The position numbers and the translations under genes were made by a program. Source: Escherichia phage vB_EcoP-U8. From it: a DNA stretch of 40,294 nt. Of this stretch, positions 22,240 to 29,606 are shown in pieces. Position 1 is the first letter of the stretch; every line of letters starts with the position of its first letter. The stretch is from sequence record MT862763.1; one strand, written 5' to 3'. The notes below the pieces were generated by a model. It worked only from the letters and a program-made list of their open reading frames with translations. It did not search any database and was not told the DNA's origin.

Positions 22240-22289
22240 AAGGGCCTATAGTCCCTATAGTGATAGTTAAGGTAAATCTATAGGCCCTT
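22240..22289. repeat. Perfect 12-bp inverted repeat (AAGGGCCTATAG / CTATAGGCCCTT) enclosing the phi13 promoter
   Basis: Arms at 22240..22251 and 22278..22289, 26-nt spacer containing promoter core. Confidence 0.8.
22250..22272 (-). promoter_or_regulatory. Phage RNA polymerase promoter (phi13 position)
   Basis: CCTATAGTGATAGTTAAG at 22254..22271. Confidence 0.75.
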
Positions 22290-24663: not shown

Positions 24664-24891
24664 TTAAATCATACTCATTAGGACGTATCCCTCAGCGATG
24701 TCACCAACGTCAGCAATGTGGACAACCTTACGTGCTACCTGTTGTCCAGTATACCCGTTGTCCCACTCATTCAGGATAAGCCAGTCGCCAACCTTAAAGT
24801 CCCGGTCGTTAAGTCTCAGCTCTGCTGTCTTTAGACCCAGTTGTACCGGACCAAAGTGCTGGCGGTGAATCTTCAGGTTGTGACTAGCCAT
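24664..24891 (-). CDS. DUF3850/ASCH-like small protein inserted between gene 11 and 12
   Basis: 75 aa; HNLKIHRQHFGPVQLGLKTAELRLNDRDFKVGDWLIL...GYVLMSM fits the DUF3850 (PUA-like) pattern as recalled; no gene at this position in T7. Confidence 0.6.
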   Translation of the reverse strand: MASHNLKIHRQHFGPVQLGLKTAELRLNDRDFKVGDWLILNEWDNGYTGQQVARKVVHIADVGDIAEGYVLMSMI

Positions 24892-25457
24892 TAGTCCCTC
24901 CCGATGTCGGACATCATGTTGTAGCGACCAGTGTCCATCTCGTACTCCATCACCTGCTGGTAGAGTTCTGCTTCCTGCTCACGAAGGTACAGTTCAGACT
25001 CTGGGCTACCGAAGAACTTAGCGTTGAACTCACGGCTAGCCTTGGTAACGATGTAGTCACGGAATACTACAGGCATCTCAGCGAACGGTTTCATCTCCAC
25101 CAGTTCGACTGTAATTGGTCCAGTGAAGGTCGTGGACTGAGTGGACAGGTCATAGAGATAGCCCCCCATGTTGCTGTAGTAACTGGTAGCACCAGCAGTC
25201 ATGACCCGAAGGTAAGACGGCAGGAATCGAATCCTATTGTCTTGGACATCAGGTGTCAGGACAGCAGCTTCGTTGATGTTAAAGTTCCAGCCTTTAGCTT
25301 GGACCTGACGATTGACACGATGCAGGATACGTTGAGCGTTCGAGACGTCAGCGTTACCTTCGTCAAGCTGTAGGACTGCTGGTTCACCGATAGCTGCTAA
25401 CATATCGTTGATGGCATCTAAGTCATCGTTAGCATTCAGTGGAATGTATTGAGCCAT
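24891..25457 (-). CDS. Tail tubular protein A (gp11-like)
   Basis: 188 aa; matches T7 gp11 as recalled (IVTKASREFNAKFFG, MEYEMD). Confidence 0.9.
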   Translation of the reverse strand: MAQYIPLNANDDLDAINDMLAAIGEPAVLQLDEGNADVSNAQRILHRVNRQVQAKGWNFNINEAAVLTPDVQDNRIRFLPSYLRVMTAGATSYYSNMGGYLYDLSTQSTTFTGPITVELVEMKPFAEMPVVFRDYIVTKASREFNAKFFGSPESELYLREQEAELYQQVMEYEMDTGRYNMMSDIGRD

Positions 25458-25571
25458 AGGTTTACTCCTTAACGGTCATAGGCGCTAGACGGTGAGCTGG
25501 ACAGCAGGTACGCCCAGAATAAGACGAATAGTGCTAACCCTGTGTAAATAAGGACCATAGTCCCTCCTTAA

Positions 25572-25610
25572 GCAAAAAAACCCCTCAAGCACCCGAAGGC
25601 ACCCAAGGGG
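25572..25610 (-). terminator. Rho-independent terminator, T-phi equivalent after capsid gene
   Basis: RC: CCCCTTGGGTGCCTTCGGGTGCTTGAGGGG followed by TTTTTTTG; close to T7 T-phi as recalled. Confidence 0.85.
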
Positions 25611-25616
25611 TTTCAA

Positions 25617-26929
25617 TTAGTTTGTGAAAGATACGTTGAAGGAACGCACAGGCGTACCGTCATACCCAACAATCACCAGACCTTCCACGCCAGAGGTGGC
25701 CTTGAAGTAGAGACTGTTGGTTCTACGGGAGTAGCTAACACCATCAGGCGTAGCCACCTCAAGCAGCGACCAATCGGTCACATCTGAAAGCTCAGGGAAG
25801 TCAACCTTCAGGCTGGTTCCCACCGTAGAACTATACGTCTCTAAGGTAGGACCCTCTGTAGAGAGGGCCTTAAAGGTCGTTAACCCGCTGACGCCGCTGT
25901 GAAAACCAGTGCGCCTGCTGCTTCTGGACGCAGACCACCGTGACCCATAGCGTACTTACCAACAATCAGGTCGCCCTGAGCATCGACGTCACGGTCACGT
26001 TCCAGCGCCAAGTCACGCAGCTTAACAGTACCTACAGCAGAACGGTGAGAGAACAGGCCCACAACGTTGTCCAGAGCAACTTTAACATCACCAGTAGCAG
26101 TAGCTGGGAAGGCGTGCTTCTGACCAGTCGCAATAGTGATACCATCGGCACCACGAGTTTCCCCAGCACCACCCTGAGTCAAGTGTGGAACTTCAACAAC
26201 CACGAAGCCCATTACGTTACGGATGTTACCAGTCTCTGGGTCAATCAGCGCAGCATAGTTAGCAGCGTTCGGCATCAGAGCCGCGAGGATTGCAGAGTAG
26301 TTGTCCGGCGTGGTGTAGAAGTAACGGTCGCCAGCAGGAACGTAGTTGGATGTCAGCTTCGCACGAGCAATGGTCAGTTGACCGATGATTGCTTCACCCA
26401 GCTTAGCCGGAGTGTTCAGGTCTGCTTTAGTACCAACTTCCAGCACAGACGCTTTGCCAAGACCAGCGATGTTTTCATCAGATGCAGCCGGTAGGTTACA
26501 CAGAATAGCCATCTCAGCCAGTACCGCACCATCGGCAGCGATAGCCAGAGCTTCGCCCAACTGGTTGGAGTACTCGCCAGCCACGTCATAGTGGTTCATC
26601 GCGTCTTCAATGTCGAAAATCATCACATCGGCAGTCAGCAGACCATCAATGGTAATCACTTTCTCGGTATGTTTGATACCTTTACGCTTATCGGACAGTC
26701 GCTCACCCGGAGCCAGATACACACCAGAGGTGCGACCCATGACCGGGAACTGAGCAGACTTACCGTTCTGAATGGTACGGACAATATGCTTGTCAGCAGT
26801 TACAGAGCGGCGAGTGAATGCTGTCAGGACTTCGCCAGCAAAGACCTTCAGGAACAACGCCAGAGCGTCGGAACCAGATTTGCCTTTACCTTGGTCTGTA
26901 CCAACTTTCTGACCCGGAACGTTTGCCAT
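25617..26929 (-). CDS. Minor capsid protein 10B (10A plus C-terminal extension via -1 frameshift)
   Basis: -1 frame is open from the slippery site at 25901..25907 to a stop at 25617, about 95 extra codons; T7 makes 10B this way. Confidence 0.6.
25880..26929 (-). CDS. Major capsid protein 10A
   Basis: 349 aa; extensive match to T7 gp10A as recalled (KHTEKVITIDGLLTADV, ALMPNAANYAALIDPE, AMGHGGLRPEAAGA). Confidence 0.96.
   Translation of the reverse strand: MANVPGQKVGTDQGKGKSGSDALALFLKVFAGEVLTAFTRRSVTADKHIVRTIQNGKSAQFPVMGRTSGVYLAPGERLSDKRKGIKHTEKVITIDGLLTADVMIFDIEDAMNHYDVAGEYSNQLGEALAIAADGAVLAEMAILCNLPAASDENIAGLGKASVLEVGTKADLNTPAKLGEAIIGQLTIARAKLTSNYVPAGDRYFYTTPDNYSAILAALMPNAANYAALIDPETGNIRNVMGFVVVEVPHLTQGGAGETRGADGITIATGQKHAFPATATGDVKVALDNVVGLFSHRSAVGTVKLRDLALERDRDVDAQGDLIVGKYAMGHGGLRPEAAGALVFTAASAG
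25901..25907 (-). other. Putative -1 ribosomal frameshift site G GTT TTC near end of 10A
   Basis: Heptamer GGTTTTC in 10A frame (CTG GTT TTC) 7 codons before the stop; same heptamer I recall for T7 gene 10. Confidence 0.55.
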
Positions 26930-27031: not shown

Positions 27032-27054
27032 TCTCCCTATAGTGATAGTTTAGT
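27032..27054 (-). promoter_or_regulatory. Phage RNA polymerase promoter (phi10), full consensus with GGGAGA start
   Basis: RC: CTAAACTATCACTATAGGGAGACC; transcript 5' end can form GGGAGACC...GGUUUCCC stem as in T7 phi10 leader. Confidence 0.85.
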
Positions 27055-27055
27055 C

Positions 27056-27976
27056 CTACAGGCTTGAGGCAGCTACCTTAGCGCGAACTTCCATCGTGTA
27101 TTTAGCGTCACGCAGGTATCGCGGGTCACTCATAGCCTTAATCATGTCAGCCTTGGAGCTGAATGCTTCGGTCTGAGGAGCCTTAGGTGCGACCACAGGT
27201 TTAGCCTGAGTGGTGATGGTACGCTGAGGTTTAACACCCACAGCTTTACCCAGAGTCTTGCCAGCCAGATTCAGCAGAGCTTTGGTAGTCGCAATGTCCT
27301 TACGAACGATGGCAGCTTCCAATGCTTCACGAGTTGACGGGTCGTTGGACTCAAGGTGTGACAGGATGCGATTAAACTGTTCAGCACCACCAGCGTAGCG
27401 AACCACACCAGCGGCATACTGTTCAGCCAGAGCTTCCTGACCACGGACAAACGAATCTACGAAGCGCTTGGTGTAACCTGCTTCCTGCAACTTAGCGTAG
27501 GATGCGTCAGACAGCTTACCGTCCTTGGCGTATTCAGCCTTGATAGCGGTAATTTCATCAGCAGTGACCTTGCCAGCTTCTACAGCAGAAGACACCATGT
27601 CGTCAAATGCAGCTTCGTTTTCATCCAGAGCGGTGACACTTTCGGTCAGCTCTTTCGGTGCATCACCTAGTTCGACGAACTCAGGTTGTTCACCATCGGT
27701 ATCAGACTCTTCATCGTCATCGGACCCATGGTCTTCATCACCCTCAGTCTCTTCGACGTTCTCGTCTTCTTCGGTCGCCTCTTCCTGCTCGGCTTCCAGT
27801 TGCTTGAAGGTAATGGCGTCATCGCCATCACGGACAGCTACGTCCTTCTCCAGCATAGACTGTTGGTGTTCGTTAAGGTCCTCAACGGAGCCAGTGATTG
27901 CATTAGGGCTAACGCCGAACTCGGCATAAACTGATTGGGACATTAAGTCTCTCCTTTGGTAGTTAATAGGTAACAC
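27056..27976 (-). CDS. Capsid assembly scaffolding protein (gp9-like)
   Basis: 306 aa, highly acidic (D/E-rich) with coiled-coil character, between portal and capsid. Confidence 0.85.
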   Translation of the reverse strand: MLPINYQRRDLMSQSVYAEFGVSPNAITGSVEDLNEHQQSMLEKDVAVRDGDDAITFKQLEAEQEEATEEDENVEETEGDEDHGSDDDEESDTDGEQPEFVELGDAPKELTESVTALDENEAAFDDMVSSAVEAGKVTADEITAIKAEYAKDGKLSDASYAKLQEAGYTKRFVDSFVRGQEALAEQYAAGVVRYAGGAEQFNRILSHLESNDPSTREALEAAIVRKDIATTKALLNLAGKTLGKAVGVKPQRTITTQAKPVVAPKAPQTEAFSSKADMIKAMSDPRYLRDAKYTMEVRAKVAASSL

Positions 27977-28019: not shown

Positions 28020-28042
28020 TGTTCCTATAGTGATAGTTTAGG
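28020..28042 (-). promoter_or_regulatory. Phage RNA polymerase promoter (phi9 position)
   Basis: CCTATAGTGATAGTTTAGG at 28024..28042; overlaps portal stop codon. Confidence 0.75.
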
Positions 28043-29606
28043 CTTGAGCCATGTCCTCACCAGCTCCCTGACCTACAGCAGCACCCATGTTAGCACCAGC
28101 AGCACTAGCACCTTGGACAACTGCCTGTTGTGACGACTGCTCAGCCATGCGCTGAATCTTCTCGTCTTGCGTCAGGAGTAGGCCAGCGGTGTCGATACCC
28201 AGAGCGTTCAGGAGTCGCAGCTTAAGGGTCGGCAAATTGATGTCCGGGTCCTGAGATAGCGGCTGAAGACCAGTCATCATGTTAACCGCCTGAGTCAGCT
28301 TCTCCAAGTCCTGACCACGGCCCAGAGCTTCCAGACCAGTTGAGACAGTAGGCTCTACCGCTTCTTTCGGAAGGTCAGGAATCATGCCAGCAGACTGAAG
28401 TTGGTTCATCAGCACACGGACGATAGGTAACTGAAGCTCTTGTGACTGTACTGAGTACACGCCACCTAAGGTCGCCTCCAGTTCGCCAGCAACATAACGA
28501 ATCTCTTCAGCAGTGACACGCTCTGCATTACGCTGAACAGCACTATTAAGAAGGAAGGCCCAGCCTAAACGTTGCTCGATAGCGTCAGCCACCGACTTGG
28601 CAATCGTAAAGTCCTGACCTTTCGTCAGTTGCAGGAAGTTGATGTCCTCAACGCGACCAGCCACGAACTCACCTGTAGCCGCCTTGTTCAGACGACGAGG
28701 TTGCGTGATACCGTTCGGGTTAACGAGGCCCACCACCTTGGAGGCTACCTTAGCCATTTTGGTGATAGCTTCTGTAATCGTCTCCAGCGAGTTAAGGTCT
28801 CCCAGATACTCCTCGCAGTAAGAACGACCGTAGTCTTCACCGTCCAGTCGAACCATTCGTACCGGGATGTATGGACATGCGGTCAGAGGATATGAACCAT
28901 CGGTCCCTGTTACCTCAATTCCTTCCACTTCCTCGTAGCGCAGATACTCGTCGTCCTGACGGTAGATGTGCGTATACACTTCCAGCTCGGTGTCAGGCTC
29001 ATAGTCGTCTGCATTGAGTTGAGACTTCACGTCTTCCGGTAGAGCACTGAAAGCTACCTTGTCGAGAGTCACAATCTGCAAGATGTTACCGAACGCATCA
29101 CGTTGAACAACGTAAGACACTAAGCGGTACATCCGCATCGGACTGTAAGTACCCTGTTCAGGCTCTGGAATGTAAAGCAGACAGTTACCGGAGACGATAA
29201 GCTGCTTCAGAGCTTCGAACAATGGCACACGGAAACTGTTAGTCTCCATGTAGGCCATCAACACACGCTCGACCATAGCAAGCCCTTCGTCAACACGAGC
29301 AGCAGCCTCTGAGTCCTGACTCAAGGTCTTGGCCTCATATTCGGAGACTGTCAGTCGCATCCACGGTGACTGAGGGAATAACGCCAACATCAGCTTTGCA
29401 GCCAAGTTGTTCAAGCAGCGAGCACCTACAGCTTGCCACGGAGTGGTATATTCAGTAGACGAGTTGTCTGATTCCTTAGGAAACAGTGACGGGATAGTGA
29501 CAGCAGCACAGTTCTGTGCGCGGGTCTCGTAAGGCTGTCGTCCGTTCTTCAATCTATCATAAACTGACTTAGCGCCTTCAGCAGCGAACCCTTCACGTTC
29601 AGCCAT
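28038..29606 (-). CDS. Portal (head-tail connector) protein gp8-like
   Basis: 522 aa; matches T7 gp8 as recalled (YETRAQNCA, ACPYIPVRMVRLDGEDYGRSY, GLVNPNGITQPRRL). Confidence 0.96.
   Translation of the reverse strand: MAEREGFAAEGAKSVYDRLKNGRQPYETRAQNCAAVTIPSLFPKESDNSSTEYTTPWQAVGARCLNNLAAKLMLALFPQSPWMRLTVSEYEAKTLSQDSEAAARVDEGLAMVERVLMAYMETNSFRVPLFEALKQLIVSGNCLLYIPEPEQGTYSPMRMYRLVSYVVQRDAFGNILQIVTLDKVAFSALPEDVKSQLNADDYEPDTELEVYTHIYRQDDEYLRYEEVEGIEVTGTDGSYPLTACPYIPVRMVRLDGEDYGRSYCEEYLGDLNSLETITEAITKMAKVASKVVGLVNPNGITQPRRLNKAATGEFVAGRVEDINFLQLTKGQDFTIAKSVADAIEQRLGWAFLLNSAVQRNAERVTAEEIRYVAGELEATLGGVYSVQSQELQLPIVRVLMNQLQSAGMIPDLPKEAVEPTVSTGLEALGRGQDLEKLTQAVNMMTGLQPLSQDPDINLPTLKLRLLNALGIDTAGLLLTQDEKIQRMAEQSSQQAVVQGASAAGANMGAAVGQGAGEDMAQA

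Follow-up and report, generated by a model that had tools for sequence, protein, structure and literature searches.

The window, by which we mean the whole analysed stretch of 40,294 nucleotides (record MT862763.1, Escherichia phage vB_EcoP-U8), is the complete genome of a T7-like (K1F-type) coliphage, circularly permuted and given as the reverse strand. It belongs to Kayfunavirus (K1F-like, Studiervirinae). A small ORF lies between the terminator of the capsid genes and gene 11. The 601-nt region around this ORF is 99.7% identical to Escherichia phage LM33_P1, which has featured in phage-therapy studies, and matches 223 phage records altogether. The features of the locus and two distant landmark genes are the following.

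27035..27061, minus strand: nearest upstream phage promoter, phi10 type, the reverse complement of CCTATAGTGATAGTTTAG
25880..26929, minus strand: major capsid gene 10A, upstream of the small ORF
up to 25617, minus strand: 10B, the -1 frame extension of 10A, ending 3 nt before the terminator
25574..25614, minus strand: T-phi-type intrinsic terminator with a 17-bp G+C-rich stem, a 4-nt loop, and a U-run
25563..25569, minus strand: Shine-Dalgarno (SD) sequence AAGGAGG of the small ORF, separated from the ATG by the 4-nt spacer GACT
25558..25469, minus strand: small ORF of 29 codons plus TAA, between the capsid terminator and gene 11
25499..25555, minus strand: predicted transmembrane (TM) helix, codons 2-20, VLIYTGLALFVLFWAYLLS (Kyte-Doolittle and Hessa scales)
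25472..25498, minus strand: polar tail, codons 21-29, SSPSSAYDR, the most conserved part of the peptide
25458..25471, minus strand: junction with gene 11, at which the TAA of the small ORF overlaps the gene-11 SD TAAGGAG, followed by a 7-nt spacer
24891..25457, minus strand: gene 11 (tail tubular protein A or adaptor, 188 aa), directly downstream of the small ORF and co-transcribed with it
9838-8075, minus strand: terminase
4795-2114, minus strand: RNA polymerase

Reading along the minus strand, the terminator is followed by GCTTAAGGAGGGACT, the ATG at 25558, the 29 codons, the TAA, GGAGTAAACCT (11 nt after the stop), and the gene-11 ATG at 25457. The start codon occupies 25558-25556 and the stop codon 25471-25469, and the encoded peptide of 29 aa is MVLIYTGLALFVLFWAYLLSSSPSSAYDR. 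An earlier note on this DNA had described an ORF with an SD and an ATG just after a T-phi-like terminator; it is present on the minus strand with AAGGAGG 4 nt before the ATG, and the peptide quoted there matches exactly. However, the ORF consists of 29 codons plus a stop rather than the 32 codons given in that note, and the gap between its stop and the gene-11 start is 11 nt (25468-25458), not 2 nt. The TAA forms the first part of the gene-11 ribosome site TAAGGAG. A weak 6-bp hairpin, AGGGAC-UAUG-GUCCUU, can be drawn at 25551-25566 (minus), with the start codon of the small ORF in its loop and part of the SD paired.

The region between T-phi and gene 11 in T7 has the same layout, namely 10A/10B, the T-phi hairpin, and gene 11, and genes 11 and 12 depend on read-through there as well. 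The difference is that T-phi and gene 11 are only 17 nt apart in T7, with no ORF, whereas the window carries an additional 101 nt with an extra gene. The statement that T7 has no gene at this place was borne out, as nothing is annotated there between T-phi (24210) and gene 11 (24228).

Several neighboring genes deserve mention. The gene 11 product is labelled as a tail protein in the LM33_P1 and K1F annotations. A 68-codon ORF (25823-25617, minus, PHROG 7473), annotated in relatives as a 'hypothetical protein', is the -1 frame of 10A. This frame is open back across the 10A stop, and a T7-type slippery sequence, GGTTTTC, is present at 25907-25901 (minus). We read the ORF with near certainty as the C-terminal extension that the frameshift adds to minor capsid protein 10B, and not as a separate gene. 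Kayfunavirus relatives have two unrelated types of 10B extension, one ending in ...SFNVSFTN* and the other in ...AAKLAESNN*. Between tail genes 11 and 12 lies a DUF3850/ASCH-domain gene of 75 aa (24664-24891, minus), which is called 'RNA-binding protein' in RefSeq and in PHROG 986. K1F lacks it, and its gene 12 begins at the last base of gene 11. The DUF3850/ASCH gene is a second optional insert within the same read-through operon as the small ORF. Further away, between gene 18 and the Rz-like spanin gene, there is a homing-type nuclease gene of 123 aa with an Endonuclease VII domain (PF02945; 10303-10674, minus).

The phage promoter consensus, the reverse complement of CCTATAGTGATAGTTTAG given above, has copies at ~28023-28049 (before gene 9), ~27035-27061 (before gene 10), and ~22241-22271 (after gene 12). 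No copy was found in the stretch from the terminator to the end of gene 12, and no sigma-70-like site precedes the small ORF. With no such promoter in this stretch, the small ORF can be transcribed only via terminator read-through. In other words, the promoter positions point to late expression of the small ORF, gene 11, the DUF3850/ASCH gene, and gene 12 from read-through transcripts. T7 genes 11 and 12 are likewise expressed late via terminator read-through. The terminator is nearly unchanged across Kayfunavirus loci. Apart from it, the region folds no better than shuffled sequences (z = -1.06), and an Rfam search of the region returned only sub-threshold noise and no RNA element.

How would such a short ORF be translated? 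Its AAGGAGG comes directly after the terminator hairpin and U-run. The leader of the small ORF, TTAAGGAGGGACTATG, is nearly identical to TTAAGGAGGGCCTATG, which directly precedes the essential gene 11 in at least 10 sister phages that lack the ORF, with the same sequence and geometry. In the type-B relative L019 (type B is described below), the small ORF uses the exact gene-11 leader of K1F, GCTTAAAGTGAGAGGAGACTTATG. Judged from these leaders, the small ORF took over a ribosome site known to work in the group, and the cassette gives gene 11 a new site that overlaps the ORF's own stop. Since the small ORF uses the SD that serves gene 11 in sister phages, its translation is very likely. Its ribosome site looks at least as strong as the gene-11 site of the ORF-less sisters, so translation is probably efficient.

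The same slot holds homologous ORFs of 29-37 codons in four lineages, namely types A and B of Kayfunavirus, part of the Klebsiella Przondovirus phages, and part of the Klebsiella/Proteus Molineuxvirinae. Type A, to which the window belongs, comprises 46 records. These 46 phage records were recovered with the window peptide in a tblastn search; 27 carry an identical peptide and the others one with 83-95% identity, and each is Kayfunavirus-like with the match at the same locus. The type-B allele, MFYLLTALGLFVSFWAIILLTGPCSPYDR, came to light via IMG/VR relatives and occurs in 15 GenBank records, ZG49 and vB_EcoP_F among them. In length and position it matches the window allele, but with only 54% nucleotide and 52% amino-acid identity. 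The other two groups were reached by searching with the type-B peptide, and their peptides are the following.

Klebsiella Przondovirus, 6 records, 29 aa: MFIVLSAVSLAVATMLYVVVTGPCSPYDK
Klebsiella/Proteus Molineuxvirinae, 17 records, 37 aa: MYYLLCVTLLLFASFWCYVLATGPVSVAERRDNANSK

The ORF has 29 codons in every lineage except Molineuxvirinae, where it has 37. The layout is the same in every lineage and consists of the capsid gene, a terminator-like hairpin, a strong SD, an ATG, the hydrophobic ORF, and gene 11. Kayfunavirus type B and Przondovirus show the same overlap of stop and SD as the window (TAGGAGG, TAAGGAGG), and the Molineuxvirinae ORF overlaps the gene-11 start. The database E-value between type B and Molineuxvirinae is weak (E 2-8), and the matches fall precisely in a syntenic slot of ~100 nt. 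In a six-frame search of the whole genome, the small ORF was the best match of both the type-B (4e-7) and the Molineuxvirinae (3e-4) peptides. Conservation in relatives had been named in the earlier note as a way to check the ORF, and homologues at the same slot in four lineages are what this check found.

Two records with the ORF stand out. PV615262 (H55), deposited as Acinetobacter phage vB_Aba_01KA, has a peptide identical to that of the window at the same locus; its A. baumannii host label looks doubtful, or the isolate looks mixed. In MZ234011 (L042 401-496, vB_EcoP-22664UKE3-2), one nucleotide is missing close to the 3' end, so that the tail reads SSPMTAKE instead of SSPYDR and the stop falls within the gene-11 ribosome site. 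The deletion may represent either a tail-less variant that occurs naturally or an error in sequencing.

Is the small ORF a gene? Its frame alone is open in all lineages, as the other two frames carry stops, and the amino-acid identity of this frame is about twice that of the others. Synonymous sites are saturated between lineages (pS 0.56-0.91), and pN ranges from 0.32 to 0.55. Within lineages, dN/dS is mostly 0.2-0.6. Between the window allele and the commonest other type-A allele (F2/P20/P26; the A1/A2 pair) it is ~1, a value that comes from just 4 differences. For so short a gene, codon-position bias does not reach significance in comparisons between lineages. Type A shows several non-synonymous substitutions, a last residue that can be R, H, or C, and one record with a frameshifted tail. 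Going by these comparisons, the constraint on the peptide is real but moderate, not strong, as expected for a TM helix with interchangeable hydrophobic residues.

The constraint is distributed unevenly along the peptide. Hydrophobic character is kept in all four lineages with low residue identity, and the mean pairwise column identity is 0.57 in the tail versus 0.35 in the TM segment. The lineages share the tail motif x-x-P-x-S-P-Y-D-[RK], and the tail TGPCSPYD is identical in Kayfunavirus type B and Przondovirus despite 3-5 synonymous differences.

The competing view is that there is no gene here, either because the ORF arose by chance in a variable spacer or because the real product is read from another frame. 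Very short ORFs do arise easily: a closed ATG ORF of at least 29 codons appeared in 2.7% of 50,000 shuffles of the 119-nt spacer, and the RefSeq record of LM33_P1 leaves the stretch unannotated. However, an equally hydrophobic ORF of such size appeared in just 0.04% of the 50,000 shuffles of this spacer, and a frame of 29 codons (37 in Molineuxvirinae) is open with an SD and an ATG in all four lineages. A chance origin of the small ORF is unlikely. The other frame was chosen in one curated record, PV714130 (L041 370-474, Escherichia phage Pipis), in which an ORF of 34 aa starting inside the terminator hairpin is annotated with 'single TM by TMHMM'. In the window, this frame corresponds to 25616..25485, 43 aa from a TTG in the hairpin. 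Against it stand the start inside the terminator hairpin, the lack of a ribosome site, and the closure of the frame in type B and Przondovirus. Because the other frame is not conserved in the other lineages, the PV714130 annotation probably names the wrong ORF. Overall, the view that there is no gene at 25558..25469 is highly improbable, and we hold with good confidence that the small ORF is a real, translated membrane-peptide gene, as the comparison of lineages suggests.

The peptide had been described as looking like a single-pass membrane peptide, and the calculations agree with this description in every lineage. The best 19-residue Kyte-Doolittle mean of the window peptide is 2.22, and the usual TM threshold on this scale is ~1.6. 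The summed insertion energy on the Hessa biological scale is -2.12 kcal/mol. Across all lineages, the Kyte-Doolittle means are 2.15-2.51 and the Hessa sums -1.3 to -2.5 kcal/mol, beyond the TM thresholds throughout. The only charges of the window peptide are D28, R29, and the C-terminus. The Molineuxvirinae tail, ERRDNANSK, is rich in arginine and lysine and favours an N-out/C-in orientation. The tail of the window peptide is probably on the cytoplasmic side too, although D28 and R29, as the sole charged residues, fix the topology only weakly.

Two further candidates were rejected. A signal peptide or lipoprotein was ruled out on reading the sequence, which has no positively charged n-region, no lipobox, and no AXA cleavage motif. 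The Cys in the type-B and Przondovirus peptides follows G-P, which is not a lipobox, and the window peptide has no Cys. A conserved helix-packing face was ruled out as well: conservation has a helical moment of 0.04, a value exceeded by 95% of shuffles.

Database searches identified the exact peptide as QZI79920.1 (UniRef A0A9E7M778), a 'hypothetical protein'. Four GenBank/UniRef entries (QZI79920.1, which is 100% identical, QZI84345.1, WQZ00629.1, and UVD41744.1) are the same gene or direct homologues in the same slot, and no function, family, or comparative analysis is attached to them. Most genomes, including RefSeq LM33_P1, leave the small ORF unannotated. Pfam, NCBIfam, and PHROG contain no family for it and gave only noise (E ~0.2-0.3) to TM anchors. 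A scan with back-translated TGPCSPYD found 3 real matches in viral contigs, in type-B Kayfunavirus only. The same scan found 2 real matches (type-B Kayfunavirus) and 5 chance matches in non-membrane contexts in metagenome contigs, and 2 chance matches only in bacterial and archaeal genomes. At the DNA level, 5,426 complete E. coli genomes gave no match, nor did PLSDB plasmids at the protein level, and a literature search found no paper on the small ORF. What is already known is that some annotators deposited a small hydrophobic accessory phage protein as a 'hypothetical protein'. The novelty is modest and consists of a family across two Autographiviridae subfamilies, a fixed insertion slot, a captured ribosome site, two deeply diverged alleles in near-identical Kayfunavirus backgrounds, and the tail motif.

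The small ORF is optional. It is carried by ~61 of the 223 Kayfunavirus-type records (27%), and ~70% go directly from the terminator to gene 11, as do T7 and K1F, the type phage of the genus. Among loci whose gp11 is 96-99% identical, the slot can be empty, filled with type A or type B, or filled with a 143-aa homing HNH endonuclease. It was empty in all 51 distinct IMG/VR loci with 52-68% identical gp11, and just 6 Przondovirus records have the ORF. As far as genome comparison tells, the small ORF is dispensable. Host labels show the ORF in ~58 of 108 Escherichia/Kayfunavirus-labelled records versus 1-2 of 59 Salmonella records, a correlation confounded by phylogeny.

The cassette measures 101 nt and lies exactly between the capsid terminator and the gene-11 ATG. 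Alignment shows sharp boundaries: the terminator and gene 11 are near-identical, and everything from the U-run to the gene-11 ATG is swapped as a block, with 54% nucleotide identity between types A and B inside near-identical flanks. The Przondovirus cassette is flanked by an exact 15-nt direct repeat, AGGAGGCTTTATGTT, and the window cassette is bracketed by TTAAGGAG and CTATG. It appears that the cassette is exchanged by recombination in the conserved flanks and lost precisely between short repeats containing the ribosome site and ATG. No paralogue or source sequence was found elsewhere in the genome, and a duplication from within the phage was ruled out on that ground. The cassette has no promoter or terminator of its own and sits downstream of the capsid terminator.

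Other observations concern the slot itself. In the Kayfunavirus locus L003 1518-2003 (IMGVR_UViG_3300045988_000061), a 143-aa gene of the HNH/Endonuclease-VII type is present in the slot instead of the small ORF, and because of this occupant the slot can be regarded as a hotspot for accessory insertions. Przondovirus phages with the ORF (L030/L032/L044) have a short-loop terminator, GGGGCCTCCGGGTCC, that resembles the Kayfunavirus one, and those without the ORF (L083-L125) have a different terminator with a larger loop, GGGGACCACTCACGGTCTC. These sequences hint that the terminator and the small ORF were transferred together between genera.

How might the peptide act? The explanation that we favor, with a probability of roughly 0.75, is that the small ORF is an optional coding gene for a single-pass membrane micropeptide; the mode of action put forward for it, a membrane-anchored ligand acting late, is more tentative. 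The peptide would be made late, together with gp11 and gp12, from phi9/phi10 transcripts that read through T-phi. Residues 2-20 would insert into the inner membrane, leaving the short tail as the part under the tightest constraint. The anchored peptide would then bind and modulate a specific membrane or membrane-proximal protein, of the host or the phage, late in infection. The outcome would be a conditional, host-dependent advantage and not a core function. A membrane-anchored ligand is favored because the tail is more conserved than the helix and because the gene is dispensable and patchily distributed. The specific-partner mechanism is a tentative proposal that we would not bet on at even odds, and any named target is more doubtful still. 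The absence of a conserved face on the TM helix speaks against it. Because no homologue of known function was found in Pfam, NCBIfam, or PHROG, the mechanism can only be inferred.

Other functions were weighed against the ligand. The earlier note had mentioned lysis timing and superinfection exclusion as common roles of small phage membrane peptides. As a lysis-timing modulator, the peptide would pair with the T7-family holin or perturb the inner membrane late, shifting holin triggering to an earlier or later time. Late expression and the predicted single-pass topology suit this role, and lysis timing is a trait in which an optional gene could bring a host-dependent benefit, which fits the sporadic distribution. 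However, the phage has a complete lysis cassette ~14 kb away on the minus strand, with a T7-family holin (PF10746, 11185-10991) and an Rz-like gene (10299-9835) with an embedded Rz1-like gene. A six-frame search found no similarity of the peptide to the holin or the rest of the genome, and it resembles no PHROG lysis family. There is no Pfam or PHROG match to the holin/antiholin class for this ORF outside the lysis cassette. Furthermore, conservation is concentrated in the polar tail and not in the TM helix, through which a holin would be contacted. A role in lysis timing is unlikely on balance.

Superinfection exclusion or anti-defence, in which the peptide would block DNA entry of a competitor or neutralise a membrane-bound abortive-infection effector fired by late proteins, is rather unlikely. 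Small phage membrane proteins do such work elsewhere, T4 Imm/Sp and HK97 gp15 being the precedents. Enrichment of the gene in E. coli-infecting Kayfunavirus suggests a host-specific benefit, but phylogeny confounds this correlation. The gene also comes right behind the capsid gene, which in T7 is known to trigger PifA exclusion by the F plasmid (annotation notes of the K1F and T7 records). Exclusion is weakened because expression is late only: read-through transcription is poorly timed against an incoming phage, and the early or prophage expression typical of the exclusion class is not seen here, with no promoter between T-phi and gene 13. Searches of PHROG, Pfam, and NCBIfam gave no homology to a known exclusion protein, and no PHROG family of any kind was matched.

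A third view treats the ORF as a translational device that delivers ribosomes to gene 11 by coupling at the overlap of TAA and SD, so that the peptide sequence is irrelevant. Coupling would be in line with the arrangement seen throughout the lineages, where the stop codon touches or overlaps the ribosome site of gene 11 or the ORF itself runs into the gene-11 start. However, in sister phages the same ribosome site serves gene 11 directly, with no ORF upstream. Moreover, length, hydrophobicity, and tail motif are kept while synonymous sites are saturated, which is not expected if the act of translation alone mattered. Coupling as the sole function is quite improbable. Individually, lysis timing, exclusion or anti-defence, and coupling are each less likely than the membrane-anchored ligand.

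Comparison with known systems helps to place the proposed ligand. E. coli YohP (27 aa) is in the same size class, and each of the two is essentially one TM helix. According to PMC7549839 and PMC12719787, YohP reaches the membrane via the signal recognition particle, and cells that over-produce it show membrane depolarisation. By analogy, it may serve as a reasonable model for how a 29-aa peptide arrives at the membrane and acts there. The differences are that YohP has no detectable sequence relation to the phage peptide, lacks the latter's conserved polar tail motif, and is a host stress protein rather than a product of a phage late gene. The T7-family class II holin (gp17.5, PF10746) is likewise small, phage-encoded, late, and located in the inner membrane. 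Here, however, the phage has its own holin, and the peptide is less than half its length, unrelated in sequence, and encoded outside the lysis cassette.

Morons and other optional cassettes in structural regions, such as HK97 gp15, share with the small ORF a presence/absence pattern among near-identical relatives, a position between essential structural genes, and a membrane-targeted product. Classical morons come with a promoter and a terminator of their own, and it is prophages that express them. In contrast, the small-ORF cassette has neither, borrows the ribosome site of its neighbor, needs terminator read-through, and is found in strictly lytic phages.

Small phage genes are routinely missed, and this one is unannotated in RefSeq LM33_P1 and most relatives and apparently given in the wrong frame in one curated record. 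An optional gene with a predicted membrane-targeted product that moves between genera at a fixed slot provides a concrete family for annotators. The cassette is also very small and easily deleted or transplanted, which makes it suitable for asking what late micropeptides do in T7-like phages. Sister phages with the slot empty, filled with type A or type B, or filled with an HNH gene offer natural near-isogenic comparisons. If the peptide has no measurable effect, it would be an ordinary accessory ORF. If it has a bearing on host range, lysis timing, or the evasion of defences, it would be relevant to the choice and engineering of therapeutic Kayfunavirus and Przondovirus phages.

A wider and speculative proposal, which we consider doubtful, is that these ORFs form a family so far overlooked, made up of micropeptide genes that T7-like phages of enterobacteria exchange horizontally and that invariably sit between the capsid terminator and gene 11. 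Its conserved tail, P-x-S-P-Y-D-[RK], kept at the surface of the membrane, would dock on one host inner-membrane or membrane-proximal protein late in infection. For example, the peptide might disarm an abortive-infection effector which acts on the membrane and responds to capsid or tail proteins. If this docking takes place, the patchy, host-correlated distribution of the gene would reflect an arms race between these phages and their hosts.
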